A stretch of DNA of 20,000 nt, from IMG/VR virus record IMGVR_UViG_3300015263_000377. The stretch is one strand, 5' to 3'. Positions 1 through 19,215 of this stretch are shown here, one piece after another (within the stretch, counting starts at the first letter, position 1; each line of letters begins with the position of its first letter). A program made the position numbers and the translations under genes. This DNA is from an uncultured virus (IMG/VR IMGVR_UViG_3300015263_000377) (lineage: Duplodnaviria; Heunggongvirae; Uroviricota; Caudoviricetes). A model generated the notes under the pieces. The model ran no database searches, was not told where the DNA came from, and was given only the letters and a program-made list of their open reading frames with translations.

Positions 1-1
1 G

Positions 2-948
<947 letters not shown>

Positions 949-962
<14 letters not shown>

Positions 963-2970
963 GTGGGTGGTCCTAGAGTTGTCCCCTCAAGGGGAGGATG
1001 AGGACCCCGAAGTCCTCTCCTCAGCCCTTGTGCGTCTGATTCGAGACAAGGCGGTCGAGATTTTCATCCCGGCTTCAATTTCGATTCAAGGGGACAGTCG
1101 AGTCATCCACAAGCTGATCGACAACTATGTGTTCATCCGTAGAACACTACCAGACAACGCCTTCCTCCGTCTGGAAGGCACGAAGTACATCTCCTCTGTC
1201 TTGACGATCGCCCGCTCCGACAAGAAGACGACGGTGCGGGAGATGGCCTGCGTCCAAGACTCCGATATCGAGCGGATGCGAAAGCAGATCCACGTCGAGA
1301 CGGAGCAAGGGATCGAAGTCGGGGACGAAGTCCAGGTGATGAGCGGCGCCTACAAGGGCATCAACGGCCGTATCATCGAGGAGATCCCGGAGAACGACAG
1401 CGTTCAAGTATTCATCAAGCTCAGGTCGAAAGAGGCCATCGTCACCCTCCCGAGGAGCTTCCTTCGGTTCGTTTCCAAGGATCAGTCGGATCTCCCGACC
1501 TTCTCTCCGTTCCTCACCAAAATCGAGAGGATCCGCGATTGGGTTCGGGCCGTGCGACCCCTTTTGGTCTGGGATCCGCTCAGCATTCAACCCTTGGAAC
1601 ACGCCATCAAGAGGTACGCGAACGTTGAGCTGGCGATGCGGTGGTGGCACCGCCGAGACCCCCTCCTAGAGCAGATGCGGCTCATTGAGCGTGTACGTCA
1701 AACCCCTGACGCTGACCTAGCGCCCCTGCTCCGCAAACACGAGGAGTTTAGTCTCGTAAACGGGTGGCTTCGCCAGGATCGGAGCCTGGTCTTCCTTGGG
1801 ATCAAGACACGTCATGAGCGCGTGAAGCACATGACCTCGATCATACAAAAGAACCCCGGCTTCTTCTACTCCGTGTCTACGGACCCCGTGGTGAGCCAGT
1901 CTGAAACGCAAATTCTAAACGGGTTCAACGAGCGGGTAAAGACGAAGCAACGCGAGACCCAATGGCTTCAAGACGTTGTGCGGCGACTTGACTCCATCGC
2001 TAGGGACCTGGACAACATCGAAGCGCTCACGTGGAGGAGACCGGACATGTTCGAGAACATCATCATCGACGGGCACAACCTCGCCTACCGAGTCGCCAAC
2101 GCTCTGGGTGTGATGAAGACCCCCCTCACGGACTCCGATGGCAACCCAACCGGGATGGTCTTCGGGTTCCTCAAAAGCCTTACCAGCTACAAGAAGCGGT
2201 TCCCAAACGCGAAGGTCTACGTGGTTTGGGATGGATCACCCCAACGCCGCATTGAAATGTTCCCAGGTTACAAATTGAAGCGTCGCCAAAAGCGGGCATC
2301 CAACGGCGCAACGACACCTGATAACCAAATGACCCGACTCAGGAACATCCTTCCGACACTGGGGGTCACTCAGGCGTTCAACAAGGACGAAGAGACCGAC
2401 GACATCATTGCGTGTCTGGTCAGGGGAAAACTCAAAGGACAACGCAACGTTATCGTCTCCACGGACCAAGACTTCCTACAACTGGTGACACTTACCGATA
2501 TTGTGCTAGCACCCAAGGTCGGAAATCGACAAGAGACCCTTTACGACCGGGATAAAGTCGTGGAAGAATATGGGGTCACGCCTGAATCTTTGGTCCAGCT
2601 TCGGGCGTTGCTGGGTGACACTTCGGACGAGATACCGGGCATCCCTATGGTGTCCGACAAAATCCTCACGGGGCTCTTGAAGAACTACGGCACTGTTGAA
2701 GACATGTTGGCATCGAACCTGTCGGGAACCACCCCGAAACAGTATGCCAAGATCCGTTCAGCGGGGGACCAAGTTCGTCTCAATTTGAAACTCATGACGC
2801 TCCTCACGGACCTTCCGTTCGAGGAGATCCCGCCAACCCCCGATGCGAAGACAGCCTCCGAGACCATAGGGGGTCTCAACATCCAGGCTGACCCGATCGT
2901 GGACCCGTTCTTCCAAACTTCAGTTGGTTTCGTGAAGCAGCAACAAGGGCAGTTCAATTTCGAGAGCTGA
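949..2970 (+). CDS. Fusion protein: N-terminal NusG-like transcription factor (NGN + KOW), helical linker, C-terminal 5'-3' exonuclease/flap endonuclease (PolA N-terminal type)
   Basis: NGN-like: WVVL...VEIFIP...KLIDNYVFI. KOW: IEVGDEVQVMSGAYKGINGRI. Exonuclease motifs from Met at 2047: IIIDGHNLAYR, PTGMVFGF, VVWDG, FPGYK, ETDDIIA, IVSTDQDFLQL, ALLGDTSDEIPGIP (H3TH). Confidence 0.85.
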
Positions 2971-4580: not shown

Positions 4581-4853
4581 ATGAGTAACAAGGACTTCGA
4601 CATCGGCTCCATGTTCCAGGTCCAAGCCTCCCACGGCCTGGACGCCTTCTTCGCTCGTGAGCCTCAAATGGTCACCCCAACGGGGCGTCGGAAGGTGGCA
4701 TCGATCCAAGACCTCGCCTCGTTCACGAGGTTGAGCAACGACACGCTCATCCACAAGGCCGAGAAGGACTTGTGGGCCATCAAGCGTGAGGCGGACGGCT
4801 CGATGGTCATTGAGCGCCAGTTCGACGACAACGGAAAGCCTCTCCGGTACTGA
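4581..4853 (+). CDS. Hypothetical protein (90 aa)
   Basis: SD-like GAGGT before the ATG; packed tightly between neighbours; codon usage matches flanking genes. Confidence 0.7.
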   Translation: MSNKDFDIGSMFQVQASHGLDAFFAREPQMVTPTGRRKVASIQDLASFTRLSNDTLIHKAEKDLWAIKREADGSMVIERQFDDNGKPLRY

Positions 4854-4863
4854 GGAGGATCCC

Positions 4864-6351
4864 TTGAGTACCCAGCAAAAGGTCCGGCTGATCATCGCCA
4901 AGTCTGGCGGGTTCTTCAAGAGCGAGGATGACGACTCCCCGTCCCCGCCGCCGCCCTTTATCGGGGGATCGGATGGCCTGAAACGGAACATCCCCAAGAA
5001 CCACGACTTCGACCCCAAGGCCCTGAAGCCGCTCGCGAGGATGCTCTTCTCGTCCAGCGTGTCGCTCGGACATGCGGTCGCTGCCTACAAGGAATTCACC
5101 CGGCTCAAGTCTGCCCGAATCTCACCGGACGGAATGCTTGGTGGTCGAGGTTACGTCACCAAGGTCAAGGACATCCGCAGCAAGCTCCAGCAGGCTTGTG
5201 AGCTGCTCTCTTCGATTACGGATACGGTTCACGACGAGATCAACGCCCCTCACTGGCAACCGAGCCTAGCTGAGCTTGGGGCGAACGATGCCGAGGACGT
5301 GACCGAGTTCATGGAGGAGGCCGAGGAGGTTCTTGAGGACCCGGAGGCGTTTGGGGAGAAGGAAGTCCAAGAGATCGAGAAGAAGAACGATGGCCCAGGG
5401 GGTACGCCGAACACCAAGCCCAAGCCCAAGTCGAAGTCGAAGACCAAGACGAAGGACAAAAGCTCTGAGCTGCCTGGCGGTGGGGATGCCGGCAACGAAG
5501 CTATCCCTCAAGGGGAGTCTTTCAAGCAGCATGTGAAGAACGCCATGCAGAAGCAGGCGAACAGCTCTGTTTCCCCAGCCACCCTCCCAGGCCCTCGGGT
5601 AGACCACCTCGACCGAGGAGAGCAAACGGGGCCGTACGGGTCATACAACCGGGATGAGCCTCTCACGGAAGATGCGTGGGGTCTCAGCGAAGGGGTAGAC
5701 GACGAGTACGACTACGAATCGGACTTCTCCAACAACTTGCTCGACAAGACTGGTCTTGAAGCATGGGGGGAGTCAGCGATCCCTGACGCGACCAGCGACC
5801 CCACGGAGACGGAAGGGCGGGACTTCGGCATCGGTTACGGAGCCAAAGGACGAGGCACCGAGGGTTACGGCACCAAGTCGCCAGACGGCCGAGGCGTTTA
5901 CGGCCCCTCCAGCGACCTCCCGAACGATCCCGGCGCCCCCACCCGAGATACGGAAGAGGGGGCCGGTCCGTATCTGGACGGCGTCGAGCGTAACGTTTGG
6001 GCGGGTTGTGGGTGCGGGCCTCAAGCAGAATCCAAGCTCCCGTTTGACGGCCCGGATCCAGTCGCTAGGTCGGACTACTTCGAGGGTAACAAGGGCAACC
6101 AATTCAACGTGACCCACCAAGGGGAGCACGTTCATGATTGGCGTATGTTGCCGGATGACGGGTCGTCGAGGGTGCCGGGCGACCAAGTGCCACCCCTCTA
6201 CAACTACGACCGAGATTTGATGGACGTTGGGCAGAGTCTCGAACACCAAGACCCTCCGTACGTCAAGTACGACTGGACCACGCACAACTACCGCAACGAC
6301 ATTCAAGATGTCTTCCGGCACGAAGACGATGACAGAGGTTCCAATGGCTGA
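4864..6351 (+). CDS. Hypothetical acidic, Gly/Pro/Asp-rich protein (probable head-associated or internal protein)
   Basis: Long ORF. Start moved to the in-frame TTG at 4864 behind the SD GAGGAGG. Helical N-terminal domain followed by a low-complexity acidic region. Confidence 0.7.
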   Translation: MSTQQKVRLIIAKSGGFFKSEDDDSPSPPPPFIGGSDGLKRNIPKNHDFDPKALKPLARMLFSSSVSLGHAVAAYKEFTRLKSARISPDGMLGGRGYVTKVKDIRSKLQQACELLSSITDTVHDEINAPHWQPSLAELGANDAEDVTEFMEEAEEVLEDPEAFGEKEVQEIEKKNDGPGGTPNTKPKPKSKSKTKTKDKSSELPGGGDAGNEAIPQGESFKQHVKNAMQKQANSSVSPATLPGPRVDHLDRGEQTGPYGSYNRDEPLTEDAWGLSEGVDDEYDYESDFSNNLLDKTGLEAWGESAIPDATSDPTETEGRDFGIGYGAKGRGTEGYGTKSPDGRGVYGPSSDLPNDPGAPTRDTEEGAGPYLDGVERNVWAGCGCGPQAESKLPFDGPDPVARSDYFEGNKGNQFNVTHQGEHVHDWRMLPDDGSSRVPGDQVPPLYNYDRDLMDVGQSLEHQDPPYVKYDWTTHNYRNDIQDVFRHEDDDRGSNG

Positions 6352-8359
6352 TCTCGGCGATCTCACCAACTTCTTGAAAGAGGGCTCCGTCGCCGACCTC
6401 GATTGGCTCGATGTCGATGAACAGCAGTATCGGGACCTGGACAAGCTCCCGAAGCAAAACCTCGACATCTCCCCGGACCTCCAGGCCATGTGGGATCACA
6501 AGGACCAGCCGGCAGGGGCTTATCTCGTCCCGAACAAGGACAAGGTTCCGTCGCTGTCTGCCTTGAGCGAGGCTCACCAGGGTAAGCAAGCGGCAGTGGA
6601 GCAGGTCATCAAGGTGGCTCGCTACACGCTCATGCAGACGACCAACCTGGGGCAGTTGAAGCAGGCGCTCACGTCCAGGTTCGATACGGACCTCATCACG
6701 AACGCCAAGACCGCTCTTGCCTCGGTTCTGCGGGAGCGTGGGCTACTTGGTCGGTACTACGTGTCGGCCGCCGACTTCACCAACTGCGCACAGTCGTCGA
6801 AGACGTTGACCACGTTCGTCAGGCGTTACGCCGCTGACGCCCGTTTCGTGGTCGCCAAGAGCGATTGCCAAGGGTGCATCCACAATTCCGCCGACACATG
6901 TGGAGTCTTCAAGAAGAAGATCGTTCTGGAGGTTCCCTACACGCCTGAGTTGGCTGACGCGGTCGAGCGTTCTCAGTCGGCCAAGGGGAAGCAAGTTCAG
7001 GCGTCCTCCACAGATCCCCGTGGTCGTATTCAGGCGGCGTATCTCGCCAAGGATGTGACTGTTGCGGGGTCGGTAGAGACCCCGAAGCCCGTGGTCGATC
7101 CGGCTCGCCAACTCCGCCAAGCGTCGGCTCCGGGCAAGGTTCACCTCCCTGTTTTCCAGACCGAAGCGCAACGCCTTCTGGCCTCTGAGCAGGCGTGGCA
7201 GCCTCCGACCCCCGAGGGAAAGACGGCTGGGGTCAAGACCGGGGAGGACCGGACGGCCTTTGAGGTCACGTCGCTTCTTCGTCGAGAGATGCTCAAGGGG
7301 CGTAGCGTCCCCGAGCTGGTTCATGCTCTGAAGCTCTCCTTCTCGGTTTCAGACCTCAAGAACACGGCCTCCCATTGGCGGCCCTTGATCGATCAAGCGG
7401 GCCTCTACGGGACCGTCTACGCTACGCAGGACTCCTTTGACGACTGCGGGGTTGGAGCAGACTTCTTCGCGAAGCATAACCCCACCGTCAAGGCGATCGT
7501 GGCTGGGGGTAAGTGCAACGGGTGCATCTACAACAAGATGTCCCGCTGCCTCATCTACGGCCGCCCCCTCGCGGCGAACACCGAAACCCCCCTGACGGAT
7601 GAGACCGTCAAGCAAGTCATCTGGGAGCACCGTCTGGCGGGCAAGCTGGAGACGGGTGCGGAGAAGATCGCTTGGGGTCCGACGCCCAAGGAAGCCCTGA
7701 AGGCCATCTACAGGGTCGCCTCTCAGGTAGGTAAGGCTGACTCTACGCCAATGCGATCATACGTCGAGCAAGCCTTCCGTGGTGCAGATCATGGGCACGT
7801 CACGGCGGGCCTCACGAAGCGGGAAATCGTCAAGACGGCCGCCCGATACTTGAACGAGGGCCTTTACGGCACCCAACTTGGGGCGGTCCTCAAGCGCCAG
7901 TTCGATCCCCGAGACATCAAGGCGGCGGCTCCGGAGTTGAAGACCATCTTGGCGGAGCAAGGTCTCCAGGGGATCTACTACGTAGATCCGATGGTCTACG
8001 GGGACTACGCGAAGGGTTGCGAGGAAGGGGCAAGGCTCCACCGTTCGCGTCTCGTCCCCTACGTCAAGTTGGGGTCCAAGTGCTCTAGCTGCGTGCTTCA
8101 AACGAAGGTCGGCTACTGCTCCAAGTACAACAAGGATCTGGTCAACGAGCCGCCGTACGCCGACAAGAAGGCTCAACAGCAGGAGATCCTCTCCTCGGGT
8201 CAATCGACGGAGATCAACCTCGCCAGCCTCATGCAAAACACCAAGTCAATCGTCGCGGAATTCGGCATGAAGTCCGGGATTGAGATCGACTTGAACCCGG
8301 AGCCGACGAAGGCTGCTCCGGTCTCTGTCGAGCTGGGGGGTCACAAGATCGACCTGTAG
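6344..8359 (+). CDS. Hypothetical protein with three repeated Cys4 (C...CxxC...C) domains
   Basis: Start at ATG 6344 (SD GAGG; overlaps the upstream stop). Three homologous units, each containing GL.G..Y followed by C...CxxC...C. Confidence 0.75.
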   Translation: MADLGDLTNFLKEGSVADLDWLDVDEQQYRDLDKLPKQNLDISPDLQAMWDHKDQPAGAYLVPNKDKVPSLSALSEAHQGKQAAVEQVIKVARYTLMQTTNLGQLKQALTSRFDTDLITNAKTALASVLRERGLLGRYYVSAADFTNCAQSSKTLTTFVRRYAADARFVVAKSDCQGCIHNSADTCGVFKKKIVLEVPYTPELADAVERSQSAKGKQVQASSTDPRGRIQAAYLAKDVTVAGSVETPKPVVDPARQLRQASAPGKVHLPVFQTEAQRLLASEQAWQPPTPEGKTAGVKTGEDRTAFEVTSLLRREMLKGRSVPELVHALKLSFSVSDLKNTASHWRPLIDQAGLYGTVYATQDSFDDCGVGADFFAKHNPTVKAIVAGGKCNGCIYNKMSRCLIYGRPLAANTETPLTDETVKQVIWEHRLAGKLETGAEKIAWGPTPKEALKAIYRVASQVGKADSTPMRSYVEQAFRGADHGHVTAGLTKREIVKTAARYLNEGLYGTQLGAVLKRQFDPRDIKAAAPELKTILAEQGLQGIYYVDPMVYGDYAKGCEEGARLHRSRLVPYVKLGSKCSSCVLQTKVGYCSKYNKDLVNEPPYADKKAQQQEILSSGQSTEINLASLMQNTKSIVAEFGMKSGIEIDLNPEPTKAAPVSVELGGHKIDL

Positions 8360-8390
8360 GGCTGAGAATCTAGCGATCGGGGCGGGTTGA

Positions 8391-8404
8391 TACTCTTGTT
8401 ATGC
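8391..8404 (+). promoter_or_regulatory. Candidate late-promoter motif variant TACTCTTGTTATGC
   Basis: Intergenic, 12 nt before ATG 8417; resembles the motif at 3637 and 18379. Confidence 0.4.
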
Positions 8405-8416
8405 CTGCTCTAAGGC

Positions 8417-9040
8417 ATGTCCCTCGCCTTGATCGCCCGTGTGGCAGCCCGATTCACCCTCCCACGGGAATCGTACTTACCGAAAGAGGTACGGGGTACG
8501 CCCCCCAACGTTGACCCTCAAGGGACGGACTTGGCGATCTGGACGTACGAGTCTCCCAATGTGCGGACGGGAGAACCCCTCCTTCTAGCCATCGCGTTTG
8601 CCGCCAAGCAGAACAAACCGATGTTCCACAACTCGTTTCGGAGCGAGGCGAGTAGGCAGGCGGCTATCAGGGATGCCATCGACTCGCGTAAACGGGTCCT
8701 TGAGTACAAGCAAAAGCAGCTTGAGGAGCGCCGTAACTACCAACACGGCATCCAAGTCGGAGAGATTTACAACACCTCTTGGGGTTACGACCAGACCAAC
8801 GTGGACTTCTACGAGGTGGTCGAGATCCGGGGGAAGGACATCCTTGTTCGTGAGGTCGCGAAGCGCGAGGTCAGCACGGACAAGAATGTCACCATGGTTG
8901 CCCCCCAGCAGGGCAAGTACGTGAGCGGTCCGGTTCGGGCTCGCCCGACCCCTGGGGGTTCCTTCAAGGTGGATGGTCACAACGCTCACAAGTGGAGCGG
9001 GAAGCCTGTCTACGAGACGACCTCTGGTTGGGGGCACTGA
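8417..9040 (+). CDS. Conserved hypothetical phage/plasmid-type protein (SWGYDQTNVDFY motif) with an N-terminal RVAARF tag
   Basis: VGEIYNTSWGYDQTNVDFYEVV is a motif I recall from uncharacterised mobile-element proteins. The N-terminus reads MSLALIARVAARF. Confidence 0.7.
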   Translation: MSLALIARVAARFTLPRESYLPKEVRGTPPNVDPQGTDLAIWTYESPNVRTGEPLLLAIAFAAKQNKPMFHNSFRSEASRQAAIRDAIDSRKRVLEYKQKQLEERRNYQHGIQVGEIYNTSWGYDQTNVDFYEVVEIRGKDILVREVAKREVSTDKNVTMVAPQQGKYVSGPVRARPTPGGSFKVDGHNAHKWSGKPVYETTSGWGH

Positions 9041-9042
9041 AC

Positions 9043-9429
9043 GTGTCCGACGCCCTCATCCTTCGGGTAGCAGCCCGGTTCCTCCACGCCGACCAGCCTC
9101 CTGGCCAGCGTAAGAAGGACAAGGACTTGGTGAAGCCTGTCAACCGACCCAAAGGCATCGACCGCTCCATCGTCAAGGAGCACGGCAAGCCAATGGATGA
9201 AGGCCATGATGAAACCGTCTCCCCCAACCGAAGAGACCTTCGACCCGAGGATGTATTCAGCCCTAAGCCCGACCAAACCAGTGTCCGCAACTTGGCTGAA
9301 ACTGGCAAAGACCTAGCCGAAGTCATCAAGAAGCAAATTCCCAAAGACAAAGGCTATGCTACTGTAAAGAACCTCTCCCAATACCTCATTGAAACTGAGG
9401 GTGGGGGCGGCACTAAATCGGTGAAGTGA
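9043..9429 (+). CDS. Hypothetical basic protein with an N-terminal RVAARF tag
   Basis: In-frame GTG at 9043, 2 nt after the upstream stop, gives MSDALILRVAARFLHA and removes the overlap present in the 8992 ORF call. Confidence 0.65.
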   Translation: MSDALILRVAARFLHADQPPGQRKKDKDLVKPVNRPKGIDRSIVKEHGKPMDEGHDETVSPNRRDLRPEDVFSPKPDQTSVRNLAETGKDLAEVIKKQIPKDKGYATVKNLSQYLIETEGGGGTKSVK

Positions 9430-10031: not shown

Positions 10032-12035
10032 GTGGCTCGCGAAAAGAAGCAACAGTCCAACCTAGCCCATATGATCCGTAGCGCCGGGCATCGTGCCCGT
10101 GCGCTTACGGAGACGGCGGCTGTCAATGGGGTTGACCTAGCTACCGTCACGGTCAACGGTCGGACGCAACGTATTTTCAACGTGCTTCAGTATGTCGAGT
10201 CCCCGTGGGGGCTCAACATGAAGCTGTTTCCAGTACAGCGGTTCATCGTAAAGCTGTACTACCACATGCCTCTGGATGACACGCTCCCGGAGGACGAGAA
10301 TCGTCGGATCAAAATCTCCGACATGTTCAACACGAAGACGTTGTACACCTTCACTGAGAAGGAGTACCTGCACTACCTCTACAACGAAGGTCGGTGCAAC
10401 ATCGGGGAGCAGGACCACCTCCGTAGACAGCTCACCCTCCCCATCGGTCGCCGTGCTGGGAAGACCACCCTATCGGCTGTTTTTGCGAGTTACGAGCTTT
10501 ACAGGCTCCTCTCGTTGGGCAACCCGCAAGCGTACTACGGGCTCCCCAACGGCAACCGAATCCAAATCATCTCGGTCGCCACGGACAAGGACCAGGCGGG
10601 TCTCCTCTTCAATGACGTGACCTCGCACATGGCGAAGTGCGAGTATTTCCAGCCGTACATCGCCAACAACACGCTCTCCTACGTCCAGCTCCGAACCCCC
10701 TACGACATTGAGAGGTTCGGGCCTACGGTCCGTCACTCGGACGGTAAGTTCACTTCGTTCAACGGCAAGGCGAGCATCCGCGTCACCTTCAAGGCCAGCA
10801 TTTCAAAGGGTCTTCGAGGGTCCGGTAACATCGTCATCATCCTCGACGAGATCGCCCACTTTCAGGACAAGGGTAAGTCGAGCGCCAAGGACATCTACGA
10901 CGCCATCACGCCGTCAACCGCTGCCTTCTCCCCAAAGGACCCTGCAACGGGGCTCCCTATCAATGGATCGGCAACGGAGTCCGAAGCTCGAATCATCTGC
11001 ATCTCCTCGCCTCTAAACAAGGCGGGTAAGTTCTACGAGCTGTACCACCTCGGCATGAGCCGAGGGCCTGGCTCGGACAACATGCTCGTCATCCAGGCGC
11101 CGACCTGGGAGGTCAACCCGACCGTCCCAACGAGCTACTACAAGGAGAAGTACCACGAGGACCCCTCCGTCTTCATGACGGAGCACGGTGCCCTCTTCTC
11201 CGACCGCGTTCGTGGTTGGATCGAACGTGAAGCGGACCTCATCGAGTGCATCCAAAAGGAGCTTCGTCCCAAGACGTACGGACCTCCGCGCTTCCCTCAT
11301 CAAATGGGGATCGACGTAGGGCTCATCAACGACGGTACGACCGTCGCGATCACTCATACCGAGGGTGCCAACATCATCCTCGACTACCACGAGGCTTGGT
11401 ACGCAGGCATGTCGTGGAGGGAAGCCAACCCCCACCTCACCTCTCCTTTCACTGACTACGCCAAAACCCTGGAGAACGTAGAGCGACTTGACTTCGAGGA
11501 GATCGCCAACTGGATCCACCTCCTCACCAAGAAGTTCTACATCTCGGCTGGGTTGTTCGACCGTTGGAACGGGCTCCCGCTCGAAGAGGCGCTCCACAAG
11601 AAGGGCTTGAAGCAGTTCAAGAGTGAGTTTTTCAAGCCTGATACGACGAGCAAGATGTACCAGGCGACGAAGCTACTCATGTTCGACAAGCGCATCACGC
11701 TCTACGACTATCCGCTACCTTCGCAAGCGGAGGCTCAATCCAAGCACTCGCCGCTCATCGAGGAGATCCTCAGTCTCCAGGCTACGCAGCGGGCTAGGAA
11801 CCAGATCATCGTAGAGGCTCCTCAGATTCAAGGGGCTCATGATGACGTGACGGACGCCCTTGTACGAGCCATCTGGCTCTCTTTGGAGCGGATCAGCAAC
11901 CTCAAGATCACGGCCCCTCGGAACTACCCGACCCAACCGAGGGGGCCGGCTTCTATGACCCACTATCAGCGGGCTAGGATGCGCCAGCACGGGGTTCATA
12001 GGGATCGTCTTGTACCGAGGGTAAGGTCAAGATGA
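10032..12035 (+). CDS. terL: Terminase large subunit
   Basis: Walker A GRRAGKTT (10446-10469), Walker B IIILDEIAHF, motif III ISSP, and RNase-H-like nuclease acidic motifs GIDVG and HDDVTDA. Confidence 0.9.
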   Translation: MAREKKQQSNLAHMIRSAGHRARALTETAAVNGVDLATVTVNGRTQRIFNVLQYVESPWGLNMKLFPVQRFIVKLYYHMPLDDTLPEDENRRIKISDMFNTKTLYTFTEKEYLHYLYNEGRCNIGEQDHLRRQLTLPIGRRAGKTTLSAVFASYELYRLLSLGNPQAYYGLPNGNRIQIISVATDKDQAGLLFNDVTSHMAKCEYFQPYIANNTLSYVQLRTPYDIERFGPTVRHSDGKFTSFNGKASIRVTFKASISKGLRGSGNIVIILDEIAHFQDKGKSSAKDIYDAITPSTAAFSPKDPATGLPINGSATESEARIICISSPLNKAGKFYELYHLGMSRGPGSDNMLVIQAPTWEVNPTVPTSYYKEKYHEDPSVFMTEHGALFSDRVRGWIEREADLIECIQKELRPKTYGPPRFPHQMGIDVGLINDGTTVAITHTEGANIILDYHEAWYAGMSWREANPHLTSPFTDYAKTLENVERLDFEEIANWIHLLTKKFYISAGLFDRWNGLPLEEALHKKGLKQFKSEFFKPDTTSKMYQATKLLMFDKRITLYDYPLPSQAEAQSKHSPLIEEILSLQATQRARNQIIVEAPQIQGAHDDVTDALVRAIWLSLERISNLKITAPRNYPTQPRGPASMTHYQRARMRQHGVHRDRLVPRVRSR

Positions 12036-13102
12036 GGTTCCCTCCGCTCGACTCGATCTCGCTCCGGGTGGCCGCGAGGTACAAGTCCAAAAAGAAGGTC
12101 AAAACTCGCGCCGGGGACGAGATGACCGTCTACGAGTACGGGCCTCGTCAGGTTGCGAACCGCAACAACCAGAAGGCGGACCGAGTCGAGAAGCTCCGGA
12201 CTTCCATGGGAAAGCTCCGGACGAAGGTGAAGTCTGACCTGAAGTCCAAGGACTTGCACACGAAGCTGACGGCCCTTGCCGTCGCCCTCATCGATCACAC
12301 GTACGAGCGGGTCGGAAACGACGAATCGGCGGATGACGGGCACTTTGGCGTCACCGGGTGGCAGCGGGGCCACCTTTCCTTCGGGAAGGGTTCGGCCACT
12401 GTCAAGTACGTCGGAAAGTCAGGGGTCAAACAAGAGAAGAAGGTCTCGGACGCACAGATCCTCAAGGCTCTTCGTGAGGCGTACAACTCCACCAAGGGAA
12501 AAGAGGACTGCATCTTCGCCTATGACGGTGGGTGTGTGGATGCGAAGGCGGTCAACGGGTACCTCAAGGACTTCGACATCACAGCTAAGGACATCCGGGG
12601 TCTTCATGCGAACCGGGAAGTCCAAGACCGACTCAAGAAGATCCGTTCTGCCGGACCGGAGCTACCACGCGAGCGTAAAGCCAAGGACAAGATCCTGAAG
12701 GCTGAGTTCAAGAAGGCCGTAGCGGAGGCTGCCGAGGCGGTCGGTCACGAGCCCTCTACGCTACGAAGCCAGTACCTCGTACCAGCGATGGAGGAAGCGT
12801 ACCTCCATGATGGCTCGGTCATCGACAAGCTGAATGCCAAGGCGGCTTCGTTCGACTGCACCCCTGAGCCCCCGCTCCTCTTTGGAAACCGCATCATCAA
12901 GCAGCTCGTGGACCACATGCTCGGGGATGAGCTGGTTGTGGAGGATCGCGACTTCAACGTGATGCGTTTGGTGTTTCGTCAACAGGGAGGGTCTTGGGAG
13001 AGGCTCCTCAATGGCGACCCCGTGCAGAACGAGCTTCTCAAGACGGTCGTAACGACTTGGGGGAAGATGCCGGGGCGCAAGCAAGAGCCGGAGAAAGCCT
13101 GA
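12032..13102 (+). CDS. DNA topoisomerase IB (bacterial/poxvirus-like catalytic domain) with an N-terminal RVAARY tag and an extra C-terminal domain
   Basis: Catalytic pentad appears intact: R93 (RVGN), K129 (GKSG), R189 (KDIR), H239 (VGHEP), Y248 (LRSQY). ATGA overlap with the terL stop. Confidence 0.85.
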   Translation: MRFPPLDSISLRVAARYKSKKKVKTRAGDEMTVYEYGPRQVANRNNQKADRVEKLRTSMGKLRTKVKSDLKSKDLHTKLTALAVALIDHTYERVGNDESADDGHFGVTGWQRGHLSFGKGSATVKYVGKSGVKQEKKVSDAQILKALREAYNSTKGKEDCIFAYDGGCVDAKAVNGYLKDFDITAKDIRGLHANREVQDRLKKIRSAGPELPRERKAKDKILKAEFKKAVAEAAEAVGHEPSTLRSQYLVPAMEEAYLHDGSVIDKLNAKAASFDCTPEPPLLFGNRIIKQLVDHMLGDELVVEDRDFNVMRLVFRQQGGSWERLLNGDPVQNELLKTVVTTWGKMPGRKQEPEKA

Positions 13103-13638
13103 TGCCTACCGAAATTGTACGAGGGCGTGATCTCATCCTCTTCCGGAAGGGCGACAACCTCCCGGTAACGATCGACGAGGCGATGGCTCAAGGCGGGTGG
13201 GCCGGGGGTCAGGGTGTGAAGTGGGCCGACTCCACGAAGGACGAGTTTCTCGTCACCTACGCCGATGGGGTCTGCTCAGGCTTCCTTGTCTGGGGCTCCG
13301 ATGAACCGGCCGACAAGTTCACCTCCATCACGGGCCACCAACCTCACTACCGCTTTGGAGTCATGCTCAGCGGCGGGTGTTTCTTCTCGACCTCCTCTTT
13401 CGAGACGTACACCTGGACGTCTCGACAGGGCGGGCCGTTGGTTCCAATTACCTACAATGCCAGCGATTTCCTATACATATCCCTTCGCGGCCTGTGGACG
13501 AAGGAAGATGAGTGGGATTTGTCTGGTGACCCGCGAGGGCCTCTTGCCGACGCCCCGTTTTTGGGGGGTTTGGTCGGTATGGTCATCCAACCCCCCAAAG
13601 CCGTGAACAACAACTTCATGACCATTCAGACCTTGTAA
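13102..13638 (+). CDS. Hypothetical beta-rich protein, possibly a virion structural or head-decoration protein
   Basis: ATG 13102 overlaps the Topo IB TGA (TGATG). Gly/aromatic-rich, beta-type composition; lies between terminase and portal. Confidence 0.6.
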   Translation: MPTEIVRGRDLILFRKGDNLPVTIDEAMAQGGWAGGQGVKWADSTKDEFLVTYADGVCSGFLVWGSDEPADKFTSITGHQPHYRFGVMLSGGCFFSTSSFETYTWTSRQGGPLVPITYNASDFLYISLRGLWTKEDEWDLSGDPRGPLADAPFLGGLVGMVIQPPKAVNNNFMTIQTL

Positions 13639-13680
13639 CCTGTTGATAACGAGCCCCTTGTGCTCGCCGAGAAAATGTAG

Positions 13681-14136
13681 ATGGAAAAAACACTTGGACA
13701 CATGACCGTGGATGAGTTGGTCGCGGAGGGGGGTCGTACCCACGCCGAGATGCTGGCTTTGGCCGAACGAGCCCAGAGGATCTACGACCTTCTGTACCAT
13801 CGGGCGAAGAAGAACCCCAATGCGGCCACCTCCGCGTATCTCAACCTTGCCAACGGTGGGAAACGGATAGCGGGCCTGATGAGCCAGGGGCTCAAGCGAG
13901 CCCAGGTCTTTGAGCGGATGCTGGCCAACATCAAGACGGAGATGGAGATCACGGAGCGTGAACAGAGGGAGAAGCAAGAGCGCAAGGCAGCGAAGGCGGC
14001 CAAAGACGGTCACGCCCCGCCCCGCGATCTTCTCTCGGAGCTGTTTGGGCCAGACACGGAGACCTCTTCTATGCTCGACGTTGCAAATGTAGGGAACGTA
14101 GCGGACATCGACGACCTCTACGGGGGAGAAATCTAA
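13681..14136 (+). CDS. Hypothetical helical/coiled-coil protein
   Basis: ORF abuts the portal start; charged helix EITEREQREKQERKAAKAAK; acidic tail. Confidence 0.65.
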   Translation: MEKTLGHMTVDELVAEGGRTHAEMLALAERAQRIYDLLYHRAKKNPNAATSAYLNLANGGKRIAGLMSQGLKRAQVFERMLANIKTEMEITEREQREKQERKAAKAAKDGHAPPRDLLSELFGPDTETSSMLDVANVGNVADIDDLYGGEI

Positions 14137-15942
14137 GTGGCTTCCGAGCGGTTCACCAACGCGTCAAGTAGCGTCGTTCTGAATACTCAGATCGGCCGGT
14201 GGACCCATGCTCCCTACTCATCCAAAGGCAAGGTGTCGAACCTTACCGAGAAGGAGCGCTTGGCGCGTCGGGTAGCCGCATCCAACAAGACGGCGATGGG
14301 GTCGTTCCCCACGAACGCTATCTCAGGGGCGAACACGACCCTTTCCGGGACGAGCCCGTTCTTCTCCCCGCAGCTCTCGACAGACTTTCTGGAGCTGCCT
14401 CAATCTCTCCGCGAGAAGCGGGAGATTTACAGGCACTTCTACAACACCGACCCCATTGTAGGTCAAGCGATCGACCTCCACACAGAGCTACCTCTGTCCA
14501 AGGTCCGGTTGGCCAAGCCGACTCCCCGCACCTACCCGGAGCGCTTCAAGGACGCCAACGACTACGGCAAGTACATCCTCACGTTCTTTCAACGTATGTG
14601 CCAAAGGATCAAGCTGTTTCAACGCTTGATTACAGCCGCCCACCACTACAACCTCGACGGTAACGTCTTCCTGTTCGCGGAGGATGGTTCGGTGGATGTG
14701 CCTGCAAACGTAGGACACAAGATTGACAAGAACGTCAAGTCCACCCTCGATGAAGAGGGGAACGGGCATGAAGAGGTTGAGGAATCCATCACGGAGATGG
14801 AGGACCGGGAAGACCGGGAGCTAGCCTACTACCAAGAGCACTACAAGGGCTGGGACAAGCTCATCATCCTCCCTATCGACCAAGTGCGGCTGGCTTCATT
14901 CAGCTTCACGGACAAGGTTACGCTCGACCTGATCCCTTCGGATAGGGACCGTGCTCTCATCGAGCAAGCAAAGGCCGGGGACGACAAGGCTTCGCAAATG
15001 GCGGAGGAAATCCCTCAAGAAGTGAGGGACTACATCGAGTCCGGGAAGCTCATCCCGCTCGGTACGGACCCGGATGAGGGTTCGTTCTGCTACCACTTGG
15101 CGGCCCGTCGTGGGGCTGGTGAGGAGCTTGGTGCCAGCCTCCTCGACCGCTGCCTTCGCATCCTCTACTACCGCGAGAAGCTCCGGCAGGCCCAGACCCT
15201 CATCGCCGATCGAGCGATGACCCCCAAGCGACTGGTTTGGGGTGAGAACCTCTCTGACGTGGATACGGATGACCTACGTGAACAGGTCGACCTCGCCCTT
15301 GTGGATCCGGACTACTCGATCGTCACCAACTACGAGGTCCACTGGGAGGAGATTGGCGCTCGGGATCGTCTGCTCGACTTGTCTTCGGAGTACGACATCA
15401 CGGACAAGCAGCTCTACGCCGGGCTAGGGGTTACCGAGTCCCTCCTCACGGGAGAGAGCACGTTCTCCGGGGATCGCGTCAAGCTGGAAGTCCTCAACAC
15501 CCGTTACCTCCTCTTTCGGGAGATGCTTCAAGAGTACGTCGAAGAGTACCTCTTCAAGCCCGTGGCCCGACGAAAGGGCTTCGTCGAGAAGGATGAGTGG
15601 GGTGACGAGGTCGTCCTCTACCCCCGTCTGTCGTTCACCCGTCTCGCTTTGCGGGACAGCCAGGATACGTACGACGCCCTCTTCAACCTGTACCAGAAGG
15701 GGTCGATCAGCATCGACCTCATTCTGGAGATGTTCAACATCGATCCGCAAGACACCAAAGAGAAGATCGAGCGGGACATGTTCTCGGTCAACGACTCGAC
15801 CTTCAACGAGGTTATCCGAGGCATTTACGGCGAGGTTGGTCGGATGTTGGCGGAGAAGACGGACATCATGGACAAGATCGCCAAGTACCTGGATCTCAAG
15901 GTCAAACCAGAGCCGGCTCCCGAGGAACAAGGTCGCTTCTGA
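14137..15942 (+). CDS. Probable portal protein
   Basis: 601 aa, downstream of terL. Portal-like segments: YRHFYNTDPIVGQAIDLHTELPLSKVRL, YNLDGNVF, GASLLDRCLRILYYREKLRQAQ, LYAGLGVTESLLTGE, EEYLFKPVA. Confidence 0.75.
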   Translation: MASERFTNASSSVVLNTQIGRWTHAPYSSKGKVSNLTEKERLARRVAASNKTAMGSFPTNAISGANTTLSGTSPFFSPQLSTDFLELPQSLREKREIYRHFYNTDPIVGQAIDLHTELPLSKVRLAKPTPRTYPERFKDANDYGKYILTFFQRMCQRIKLFQRLITAAHHYNLDGNVFLFAEDGSVDVPANVGHKIDKNVKSTLDEEGNGHEEVEESITEMEDREDRELAYYQEHYKGWDKLIILPIDQVRLASFSFTDKVTLDLIPSDRDRALIEQAKAGDDKASQMAEEIPQEVRDYIESGKLIPLGTDPDEGSFCYHLAARRGAGEELGASLLDRCLRILYYREKLRQAQTLIADRAMTPKRLVWGENLSDVDTDDLREQVDLALVDPDYSIVTNYEVHWEEIGARDRLLDLSSEYDITDKQLYAGLGVTESLLTGESTFSGDRVKLEVLNTRYLLFREMLQEYVEEYLFKPVARRKGFVEKDEWGDEVVLYPRLSFTRLALRDSQDTYDALFNLYQKGSISIDLILEMFNIDPQDTKEKIERDMFSVNDSTFNEVIRGIYGEVGRMLAEKTDIMDKIAKYLDLKVKPEPAPEEQGRF

Positions 15943-15975: not shown

Positions 15976-18900
15976 ATGGACTTCCTCGGTACGAAGGACC
16001 ACGGCGAGCGAGAGGACGAAGAGGCGGAGCGCCTCGTTCGTCCTCTACCCAAGAAGAAGCCGCCTCGTAAGGACCGTCGCCGCGAGGAGATGCAGACGGA
16101 TCGCGACCCCGATACCGATGGGGACACGGACCTCAAGAACGATCCGGACATGTCCCTCAACTACAAGAACGTTGGGGGCTCCCTCGTCTTGGTTCGTCGT
16201 GTTGTTGCTCGCTTCAAGAGGGCGGAGTCAGGCCCCAAGAAGTACGTCTCGGTTTCCGACTCCGAGCAGGGTGGGAAGGTCGTTTCAGTTCCGGAACAGA
16301 CCGCCAAGAACAACCCTTCGCGCTACAAGCCCGTCAAGGACAAGGAGCGTTCGGAGCGTGAGTCCCCTGGAGCCAAGAAGCCGGAGGGTCCGAAGGAAGA
16401 GTCCAAGGGTGAGGAGTCCAAGGGTGAGGAGTCCAAGGGTGAGGAGTCCAAGGGTGAGGAGCCCAAGGGTGAGGAGCCCAAAGCTGAGGAGCCCAAAGCT
16501 GAGGAGCCCAAAGCTGAGGAGCCCAAAGCTGAGGAGCCCAAGGCTCCCGAAGAGAAGAAGGCTCCCGACTCCTCTTCTGAGGAGCAGATGGCCGCTCGTG
16601 TCCGGGAGCGGTTCAAGGCGAAGAACTACCAGAACCACCCGGAGTTCAAGGAATACACCCAGAACCTCCCTACAACCGACGACTCCGGCAACTTCTATGA
16701 CCCTAAGTCGAAGAAGCGTGTCCCTTGGGATCAGCTCGACCCCAACGAGCAATCGCGACTGATCAATGACTTCGCTACGAAGAAGAAGCGGAAGTCTCTT
16801 GACTCCAAGCTCGATGCCTTAGACCCCAAGGTCAAGGCTGCGATTCAATCCCTGGCTGACCCCAAAAGTGAGCTGTCCAAGAAGCTCGACCAGTACAAGA
16901 AAGATGGGCACCCCATCGAGGGGATCCCGCCCGAAAAACTAATCCCGGCCCTCAAAGGTCTGAACCTCCCTGCCAAGTCGATTGCGGACCTTCAAGGGGC
17001 TGCCTCAGACCTTACGAAGCGAGAGACGACCAAGGCCGAACAAGAGAAGGCTCAGGCCGCTGAAAAGAACCAGAAGGAGCTGGAGGAGGCGGCCCGCAAG
17101 GCTCAGAGCGCCAAAGACTTCAAGCCCCCGAATCGAAAGCCGCCCACCGAGGAGGAGCGGTTGGAGGTGCTTAACGCCCTCTGGGACATGGATCCGCCCC
17201 TCCCTTCGGAAATTCAAGTTCGCCTTGGGTCTCTTCATCCGGAAGACGCCAAGCTCGCCCTCTCTTCTTACACGAAGTTCAACGCCCTCGATCCCCCCAA
17301 GAACCTCAAACGAGAGATCCAAGAAGCCGGACGGAATTACGTGTCGGACCCACTAGAGGTCACCTCACTTCCCAAGTATGGGGTGGTCAAGGTCCAAGAA
17401 GACGGCAAGGAAGTTGAGAAGAAACTCACCTTTGACAAGTTGACCCCAGGCCAGAAGCAACAAGCGGTTCACGAGCACCGTATGAAGTTGCTGGGAGCCA
17501 GCTTGGCCTCAAGGTCTCGCGTTGCGAAAGCGTTGGTAGGGAACGGGATCCCCAAGCACCTATCGACCTCGTTGGCCCACGCGACGCTGTCAGCGGGGTC
17601 CTTGTCGGAGTCCGAGAGAAAGAAGAAGGTCAAGACCTGGGCTACCAATCTCTTCACCCAGTCCTCGTCTGGTTACGGGAAGCAGGAAGAGAGCGACGGG
17701 CGGTTCGGTCACGTGGTTCGCACCACAACTAGACCAACTCTCAGCGACAAGGACCGGACCAAGTTCATAGAGGCGATCAAGAAGTTGGACCCCGTGGGTC
17801 AACAGGTTGCGGTTGCTGCTCTTCAAGGTGAGGACTACCGGGAGGCCAAAGCTCGATTTTTGGATCCGAAGTCCGGGGATGCGATTCGACCTACGGATGA
17901 CCCCGAAGACGTCGCTCGGAAGCTAAGTCAAGCGCAAGACATGATGAGCAAAGCGGGTAAACGCTACCCGTCCGAGTTGTCTGTCATTGATCCAGCTACG
18001 ATCCTCAAGGTCCAAACCCTCAAAAAACTCCGCGACCAAGATCCCGCCAAAGCTCGTCAGGTGGTGACCCATATCCGGGAAGACGAGGTCAAGCGCTACC
18101 ACGCGAAGCGATCAGAGTGGGAGAGCAAGGACAAAGAGCACAAGACGAAGCAGAAGGCGGCTCAGAAAGAACACGACGCTTGGGAGAAGCGGAAGACGAA
18201 GCACGAAGCGAAGTACGCCAAGGACCCCTACCGGGCTCCCCCGTTCGACGAGCCTGAGCCTGAGTTGCTTCCGGATCTTGAGCCTCCGAGACCACCCATC
18301 GGGTACTTGCGCAAGCTCAGTGAGAAGGATCGGGAGAAGGCGAAGCTAGACCTCAAACAGCTTCGTCGCGCTTCTCTCTATTCTTCTTATGGGCTCCAAA
18401 AATGGCAGATGGGTACCACTCCGCCTTCCAATCGGGACCGCACCGCCCTGTATCACGGGGTGGAGCCTTATCCGAAGGGTCACGAGGGTTTCGCTCCTTA
18501 TACCAAGTGGAACCAACCCCATCGTTGTGACCTCGGGGCGTCGGACTTCGACGCCATCCTGAAGTCCGCCAAGGAATGGCTCAAGTCCCCTGTGTTGGCC
18601 AAAGACATCGAGGGGATGGTTCCGGACGCCCGGTTCCGAGCGGCGTTGGACCTCGCGATCCACGCGAGTCGATACAACAGGGCGATCTCGCCCCCGCTTT
18701 ACAACATGATGCTCGCCAAGCTCGCTTCGCAACCTGCGGACGAGACGTTGTTGACCGTCCACGCGGCGACCGACCGTGTGGCTTTTTCAACCGAAGAGAC
18801 AGAGGGAAACGCCATGACCGTCAAGTTCGCCAAGGACCAAGCCAACGCCATTCTGGGTCGTCTCGACAAGGCGGCCGGGTTCATCCAAGAGAACTACAAG

Positions 18901-19215
18901 AAGTTCGGGATGGACTTCGATACGGCCAAGGCAATCGTGAACGACCTCGACAAGACCGCCGATGAGATCGAGGCGGCTGCCTTTGGTGAGGCTTCGCTCC
19001 TCAAGCGGCAGACCGAGGTGCTCGCGGCTTCCAACCCGAAGCTCGCCAAGGTGCTCCAGCAGGACTCCGATGAGAAGTACATGGGTACGTTCAACGCGCC
19101 CATGGCCCCTCACCAGACGGACGCCGACGAGAAGTACATGGGCCAGTTCAAGGACGACCAGTCTGAGGCGGTCCACGAGGGCAAGTCGACGACCGGCAAG
19201 CCGCTCGCCCCCTGA
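15976..19215 (+). CDS. Large Lys/Glu-rich composite hypothetical protein (1079 aa) with probable internal starts at 18409 and 18814
   Basis: Uninterrupted ORF with highly charged low-complexity segments and RVVARF/RVRERF tags. In-frame ATG 18409 follows the promoter-like motif; in-frame ATG 18814 follows SD-like GAGGG. Confidence 0.75.
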   Translation: MDFLGTKDHGEREDEEAERLVRPLPKKKPPRKDRRREEMQTDRDPDTDGDTDLKNDPDMSLNYKNVGGSLVLVRRVVARFKRAESGPKKYVSVSDSEQGGKVVSVPEQTAKNNPSRYKPVKDKERSERESPGAKKPEGPKEESKGEESKGEESKGEESKGEEPKGEEPKAEEPKAEEPKAEEPKAEEPKAPEEKKAPDSSSEEQMAARVRERFKAKNYQNHPEFKEYTQNLPTTDDSGNFYDPKSKKRVPWDQLDPNEQSRLINDFATKKKRKSLDSKLDALDPKVKAAIQSLADPKSELSKKLDQYKKDGHPIEGIPPEKLIPALKGLNLPAKSIADLQGAASDLTKRETTKAEQEKAQAAEKNQKELEEAARKAQSAKDFKPPNRKPPTEEERLEVLNALWDMDPPLPSEIQVRLGSLHPEDAKLALSSYTKFNALDPPKNLKREIQEAGRNYVSDPLEVTSLPKYGVVKVQEDGKEVEKKLTFDKLTPGQKQQAVHEHRMKLLGASLASRSRVAKALVGNGIPKHLSTSLAHATLSAGSLSESERKKKVKTWATNLFTQSSSGYGKQEESDGRFGHVVRTTTRPTLSDKDRTKFIEAIKKLDPVGQQVAVAALQGEDYREAKARFLDPKSGDAIRPTDDPEDVARKLSQAQDMMSKAGKRYPSELSVIDPATILKVQTLKKLRDQDPAKARQVVTHIREDEVKRYHAKRSEWESKDKEHKTKQKAAQKEHDAWEKRKTKHEAKYAKDPYRAPPFDEPEPELLPDLEPPRPPIGYLRKLSEKDREKAKLDLKQLRRASLYSSYGLQKWQMGTTPPSNRDRTALYHGVEPYPKGHEGFAPYTKWNQPHRCDLGASDFDAILKSAKEWLKSPVLAKDIEGMVPDARFRAALDLAIHASRYNRAISPPLYNMMLAKLASQPADETLLTVHAATDRVAFSTEETEGNAMTVKFAKDQANAILGRLDKAAGFIQENYKKFGMDFDTAKAIVNDLDKTADEIEAAAFGEASLLKRQTEVLAASNPKLAKVLQQDSDEKYMGTFNAPMAPHQTDADEKYMGQFKDDQSEAVHEGKSTTGKPLAP
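16396..16545 (+). repeat. Coding tandem repeat, 10 x 15 bp (EESKG x4, EEPKG x1, EEPKA x5)
   Basis: Units GAGGAGTCCAAGGGT / GAGGAGCCCAAGGGT / GAGGAGCCCAAAGCT read directly from the sequence. Confidence 0.95.
18379..18392 (+). promoter_or_regulatory. Candidate internal late-promoter motif TATTCTTCTTATGG
   Basis: 12/12 identity with 3637-3648; AT-rich patch inside a GC-rich ORF; 16 nt before the in-frame ATG 18409. Confidence 0.45.

Follow-up and report, generated by a model that had tools for sequence, protein, structure and literature searches.

Genes and features of the locus

The window analysed here, 20,000 nucleotides in length, is part of a 72-kb virus record, with dnaX upstream of the reading frame described below and genes for a terminase, a type IB topoisomerase and a portal protein downstream (Table 1). 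A single uninterrupted frame of 673 aa runs from a GTG at 949, which overlaps the 3' end of dnaX, to the TGA at 2970. Pfam matches over cut-off were found along this frame for NusG (residues 6-110, E 1e-4), KOW (residues 124-155, E 1.5e-5), 5_3_exonuc_N (residues 371-542, E 3.8e-28; 98.7 bits) and 5_3_exonuc (residues 543-625, E 2.9e-16; 60.2 bits). An earlier note, made from the sequence of the stretch, had described an NGN and a KOW domain, a helical linker and a PolA-type nuclease following one another with no intervening stop codon; the open frame, the Pfam matches and the predicted structure of the linker, here called the arm, all bear this description out. The full-length structure model has a pLDDT of 83.6 and, with a pTM of 0.55, does not support a fixed geometry between the parts of the fusion protein.

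Table 1. Positions of the features discussed in the text, numbered from the first letter of the window
Feature	Position	Strand	Basis or remark
dnaX, 3' part (clamp-loader gamma/tau)	1..962	+	interrupted in the window by 32 C residues at 591-622
Fused ORF, 673 aa: NusG-like NGN and KOW, helical arm, 5'-3' flap nuclease	949..2970	+	ORF calling, Pfam
NGN domain, residues 4-119; all 64 aligned relatives share W6, P20, P41, L56, Y60 and F62	958..1305	+	Pfam, alignment, fold
KOW domain, residues 120-176; loop LRSK	1306..1476	+	Pfam, alignment
Arm, residues 181-362, built of amphipathic Trp-bearing helices whose number varies	1489..2034	+	structure model, dN/dS
Ribosome-binding site GGAGGAG inside the frame, with the in-frame ATG 2047 as predicted start of a free nuclease	2033..2049	+	anti-SD pairing, relatives
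PolA/FenA-type 5'-3' flap nuclease, residues 367-655; active-site residues intact	2047..2913	+	Pfam, fold match, alignment
C-terminal QFNF, resembling a sliding-clamp-binding motif	2950..2961	+	motif likeness
Sigma-region-4-like double-HTH protein lacking region 2, 211 aa	2988..3623	+	profile search, relatives

An artefact, or the one-off loss of a stop codon, was considered as the source of the fusion. An artefactual run of 32 C residues does sit 330 bases upstream of the frame in the window, and the contigs of two sequencing runs do not span the fused frame. However, the contig exists in another copy, L001, in which the fused ORF is identical, and of the 120 best homologues 117 align over 92% of the query or more, with identities of 37-100%, on contigs of up to 513 kb. 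This conservation refutes an artefactual origin, to which we give practically no weight, and the maintenance of the fusion down to 37% identity rules out the one-off stop loss for which the earlier note had left room. On the comparisons of sequence, the fusion is a real and old domain architecture assembled from two known families. At the site of the C run, L001 has ordinary Pro-rich coding and a continuous dnaX of 508 aa; the run is thus an artefact of this record, and a programmed frameshift in dnaX at this point was considered and rejected.

The gene order immediately around the fused ORF is strict. In all 70 loci with 1.5 kb of upstream sequence dnaX precedes it, and in all 80 with 0.5 kb of downstream sequence a sigma-region-4-only double-HTH gene follows; both counts include the distant group of relatives described below. 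The sigma-4-like protein is strikingly conserved across the clade, always directly after the nuclease, and is a candidate phage transcription activator acting on the host RNA polymerase (RNAP).

Several further genes were observed. At 10032-15942 of the window lie the terminase large subunit, a type IB topoisomerase (PF01028, E 4e-25) whose gene overlaps the terminase stop codon, and then the portal. Several structural-region ORFs at 4786-9429 gave no family match, nor did a 1079-aa ORF at 15976-19215 that holds a run of 5-residue repeats (EESKG / EEPKA). Upstream of the window, a 413-aa ORF (L001:218-1456) matches a PHROG processivity factor (E 0.0024) and has no Pfam or NCBIfam match; it may be a divergent sliding clamp. 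Judging from translations, the record also appears to encode EF-Tu-like and GroEL-like proteins (G000 C1 5663-6922, 27962-29626).

The nuclease part and the replication genes of relatives

The residues D374, E482, D484, D485, D506, D508, D557 and D560, together with K442 and R445, are present in the query and kept in 66/66 fused genes, as is Y441; D428, likewise present, is kept in 65/66. We take these residues to make up the two metal-site carboxylate sets and the Lys/Arg of the arch. The best fold match of the model is FenA of M. smegmatis (TM 0.79 on the target, E 5e-17), and the same fold with the full catalytic acid set is shared with the PolA 5' nuclease, T5 D15 and SPO1 gp32.85. The DNA polymerase I model matches over its positions 4-249 of 889 only; there is no polymerase domain on the fused chain, and the family-A polymerase has a gene of its own.

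Five relatives of 435-513 kb, 94-100% complete, were used to view the gene in the setting of an almost entire genome. Each has one PF02739 match, which is the fused gene, and each encodes a family-A polymerase (PolA, 5/5) without a 5' nuclease of its own; PolB, PolC and RNase HI were each found in 0/5. With a sole 5' nuclease and a polymerase lacking one, the fused gene would supply the polymerase's missing activity. Stand-alone flap nucleases have this pairing with a nuclease-less family-A polymerase in common with the present gene, whereas here the nuclease is joined to a transcription factor and not to a polymerase. Neither RNAP beta nor beta-prime was found in any of the five, so that the NusG part has only host RNAP to act on. 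Sigma region 2 matches occur in 2/5.

The NusG half

The N-terminal half folds as NusG (Foldseek E 1e-9 to 1e-7 to NusG and RfaH), its sequence and fold matches being the NusG proteins of T. maritima, A. aeolicus and E. coli, and RfaH. With NusG/Spt5, RfaH, LoaP and UpxY it has in common an NGN domain followed by one KOW domain; unlike NusG, RfaH, LoaP and UpxY, it is phage-encoded, falls below every curated cut-off and carries in addition an arm and a nuclease. The scores lie far beneath the thresholds in each case: 41 bits against 135.7 for housekeeping NusG (TIGR00922), 26.7 against 144.5 for RfaH, 29.7 against 125 for LoaP and 37.5-38.6 against 100 for UpxY. The loop of the KOW domain reads LRSK in the fused clade and xSRE in distant relatives, as against IFGR in housekeeping NusG. 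The IFGR loop of NusG serves S10 and Rho binding, and its replacement by LRSK makes both activities doubtful here.

Fusions to sigma-70 or HTH domains occur among distant members of the phage NusG family (3 of 40 scanned): P0236 is joined to a full sigma-70, and P0235 and P0245 to HTH domains. Joining to unclassified repeat domains was also seen among P0236, P0235, P0245, P0246 and P0253.

Residues P41, L56, Y60 and F62 align with the LFPGYVF motif of T. maritima NusG, and presumably form the hydrophobic patch through which NGN touches the beta-prime clamp helices. Membership of the NusG family and the conserved NGN residues together predict tethering to RNAP, with the NGN domain binding the beta-prime clamp helices of the host enzyme. 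The part of a NusG review drawn on here states that all NGN domains contact these helices, and that NGN and sigma occupy adjacent sites on them and compete (PMC7819879).

The helical arm and the C terminus

The arm is predicted to be all-helical, with pLDDT in blocks of 44-87, and ranges from 100 to 190 aa in 66 relatives. Its median identity to the query is 26%, compared with 47% and 51% for the two domains. No match was found for it in Pfam, PHROG or NCBIfam, and fold searches with the N-terminal half returned NusG/KOW proteins only, the arm matching no fold; leucine-rich-repeat matches of an arm profile (A2) were weak and taken as composition noise. The arm is shown by its substitution pattern to be under purifying selection (dN/dS 0.07-0.21 in those 8 of 12 pairs that were not saturated).

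The protein ends in QFNF, which we liken to a sliding-clamp-binding motif. A clamp-like C terminus of this kind is present in 13/14 distant stand-alone nucleases, in 5/66 fused genes (the query included) and in 0/4 split genes, counts that are descriptive, the pattern having been defined after the C-termini were viewed. The motif's rarity in the fused genes looks as if the mode of recruitment had changed.

Distribution of fused and separate forms

The protein search returned 218 relatives among 7995 candidates of similar length; many of the relatives had been auto-named "5'-3' exonuclease/transcription antitermination factor NusG" by JGI. The 236 loci that were fetched comprise 140 with both domains, 93 with the nuclease only and 3 with NusG only. 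Bacterial genome matches account for 79/93 of the nuclease-only loci, and 79/80 loci in bacterial genomes are of this type. The single fused bacterial locus, L157, has the gene order seen in the phages, and its contig was assigned to an actinobacterial MAG; it is probably a binned phage contig and not by itself a host clue. Among cultured phage records, 0/206 matches cover 80% of the query, and all match the nuclease part only.

The earlier note had contrasted a conserved fusion with a pair of genes in relatives. The fusion holds in 115/140 two-domain loci and does not in 25/140, which are not one frame; full-length queries favour fused matches, and these proportions should be read with that in mind. 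The 25 fall into two kinds: six close relatives in which NusG with its arm ends at, or overlaps, the start of a nuclease in another frame, and 19 distant relatives in which a short NusG is a separate gene before the nuclease. Dereplication at 90% identity left 66 fused, 5 split and 15 distant loci (n=86).

Fusion and fission

In a quick tree, the distant two-gene group forms one side of a branch with support of 100, and the split forms fall inside the fused set at two places. AU tests on 68 rows, with L157 left out, rejected both a single fused clade (p 1.4e-8) and a single split clade (p 1.3e-6). With the distant group as root, the simplest reading of these trees is one fusion followed by at least two later fissions. 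At the split locus L063 the two halves overlap translationally (ATGA).

Proteins pointed the same way. A search with the N-terminal half gave 15 matches without nuclease among the best 120, and 14 of these are true NusG-plus-arm proteins in the L004 clade; P0151 is a truncated fusion, not a split form. Among the best 67 representatives at 50% identity, 14 are without nuclease and 11 of these end at the end of the arm. A protein tree of the representatives, in which rows P0157, P0201 and P0231 were disregarded for carrying the wrong domain segment, suggests about five fissions.

These numbers can be set against a rough neutral estimate, in which 35-118 stop gains are expected in the four codons before the internal start on a fused tree of 25.8 substitutions per site, the constraint from the overlapping SD being ignored. 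Two fissions are confirmed by DNA and about five are suggested by proteins; since these are far fewer than the neutral stop gains, and at least two nevertheless occurred, the link between the domains appears favoured yet dispensable. Split forms retain the whole arm, which argues for a role of the arm on its own, and the split NusG ends in a basic tail.

A predicted internal start for a free nuclease

The earlier note had pointed to a GGAGG and an in-frame ATG ahead of the nuclease and proposed that two products may be made. Both elements are there (GGAGG at 2033-2037, ATG at 2047), and with an anti-SD pairing of -9.3 kcal/mol this ATG is the strongest of 43 internal in-frame starts, the next reaching -6.5. 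Comparison across relatives supports the proposal, with the qualification that the internal start has disappeared from some lineages. Among the 66 fused genes, the position seven codons ahead of the first catalytic Asp holds ATG in 25, GTG in 12 and TTG in 2 (39/66); where it encodes Val, GTG is used in 12/15, whereas in the rest of the ORFs 31% of Val codons are GTG (binomial p 1.3e-4, uncorrected for kinship, the codon and SD counts alike being phylogenetically non-independent). Anti-SD pairing before starts at offsets 6-8 has a mean of -5.6 kcal/mol (n=46), while the remaining in-frame starts average -2.4 (n=2615); the means for true starts are comparable to the former, with -5.9 for the gene that follows (n=56) and -4.8 for nusG itself (n=62). 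The SD pattern persists at 75% dereplication.

No start at offsets 6-8 is found in 20/66 fused genes, 13 of them in one subclade, where the nearby ATGs mostly have weak ribosome-binding sites. The extreme case is L132, in which none of the codons at distances of 4 to 19 upstream of the first catalytic Asp is ATG, GTG or TTG, so that its only nuclease is probably the fused form. Most lineages thus likely make two products, while others are likely fusion-only; where the start is kept, we infer that both the long and the short product are made.

Nested in-frame starts are known from T7 gene 4A/4B, infB and clpB. These have in common with the present gene, as predicted here, a long product and a short one made from an internal SD and start; the internal start of the fused gene differs in looking like the leftover of a once-separate gene and in having been lost in some lineages.

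The retained start is compatible with co-expression that involves no working tether. NusG with its arm would then work on host RNAP as an antiterminator of the phage, and the nuclease, made from its own start, would act alone, the link fixing only the order and amounts of the two. The distant relatives that keep nusG and nuclease as separate neighbours (19 loci), the retention of the internal start itself, the repeated fission with translational overlap as in L063, and the split NusG that keeps its arm and ends in a basic tail are all in keeping with such an arrangement. It sits poorly, however, with fissions so far below the 35-118 neutral stop gains estimated, with the 20/66 fused genes that lack a start at offsets 6-8 and with L132, which has none at offsets 4-19; we regard it as possible though rather unlikely.

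What the fused protein may do

The reading that we prefer, tentatively and at slightly less than an even chance, is that the gene provides a free nuclease for primer and flap removal together with a long form that works on host RNAP at transcribed, replicating DNA. The short product would remove lagging-strand primers and flaps for the phage family-A polymerase. The long product would bind host RNAP through its NGN domain, and its helical arm would carry the nuclease to RNA:DNA hybrids and 5' flaps at points of encounter between transcription and replicating phage DNA; that such hybrids and flaps are its substrate follows by inference. We count in favour of this reading the prevalence of the fusion, the intact active site, the NusG fold of the N-terminal half, the gene content of the five near-complete relatives, the signals of an internal start, the purifying selection on the arm and the low number of fissions beside the neutral estimate, as well as the state of L132, whose nuclease would probably be fusion-only, and the rarity of the clamp-like motif in fused genes. 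Against it we count the repeated fission, the nuclease-less relatives, split forms that also lack the clamp-like motif, an NGN domain far below the nusG, RfaH, LoaP and UpxY cut-offs, and the pTM of 0.55. The retained internal start also speaks against this reading, because it makes the supply of nuclease independent of the tether.

Of the roles that the earlier note had suggested for a long form, torpedo-like termination, in which the tethered nuclease would degrade nascent RNA 5' to 3' and dislodge RNAP, is the least likely. A 5'-3' nuclease on an elongation factor would have the right polarity, but sequence and fold group this nuclease with the structure-specific enzymes FenA, PolA and T5 D15. 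Nucleases of that type act at duplex junctions, unlike XRN2, RNase J and FttA, which act on free single-stranded RNA, and we consider a torpedo role very unlikely.

The tether might also run in the reverse direction, in a manner resembling phage T4: the nuclease, held at nicks and flaps or by the clamp, would bring NusG to host RNAP together with the sigma-4-only protein, and late transcription would thereby be restricted to DNA in the course of replication. Several observations are consistent with this. No phage RNAP was found (0/5) and no sigma region 2 match in 3/5 of the near-complete relatives; the sigma-4-only gene follows in 80/80 loci and dnaX precedes in 70/70; and among distant family members a full sigma-70 is the fusion partner in one and HTH domains in two. 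The NGN and sigma sites are adjacent on the clamp helices, according to the NusG review (PMC7819879), and there is a precedent in T4, which couples late transcription to its sliding clamp through gp55/gp33 (PMC7892883). However, NusG proteins are elongation and not initiation factors, split lineages exist, the clamp-like motif is present in 5/66 fused genes only and the identification of the clamp gene is weak (a PHROG match at E 0.0024, none in Pfam or NCBIfam); we hold this reading to be improbable.

Taken further, the dnaX - nusG/nuclease - sigma-4-only operon could be a new phage transcription switch, with NusG on the sigma site of the RNAP clamp, the sigma-4-only protein on the flap and the nuclease anchoring the complex to nicked replicating DNA; this would give replication-coupled late transcription by a route unrelated to that of T4, a proposal that we would grant a slim chance. 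Such a system would have in common with the late transcription complex gp55/gp33/gp45 of T4 (PMC7892883) a phage without its own RNAP and a replication component hypothetically linked to host RNAP. There is no homology between the two; in the present case a NusG-like domain would bind RNAP, and the component from replication is a nuclease.

Significance for very large phages

To our knowledge, no transcription factor other than NusG/Spt5 is conserved universally, and the breadth of its regulation derives from the partners that it binds through KOW. No description of a fusion of NusG with a flap nuclease was found in the open-access literature, although the supplements of huge-phage surveys may list the gene; the words "fused" and "nuclease" are absent from the part of the NusG review drawn on here (PMC7819879). 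If our preferred reading is true, a phage NusG carrying a replication nuclease would represent a new means of placing an enzyme at the elongation complex, and the DNA repair and replication of the phage would be tied physically to the host transcription machine. The fused, re-split, start-less and ancestrally separate versions are natural controls, small enough for assay with laboratory RNAP, and the family would offer a handle on transcription-replication conflicts or late-gene coupling in very large phages without an RNAP of their own.
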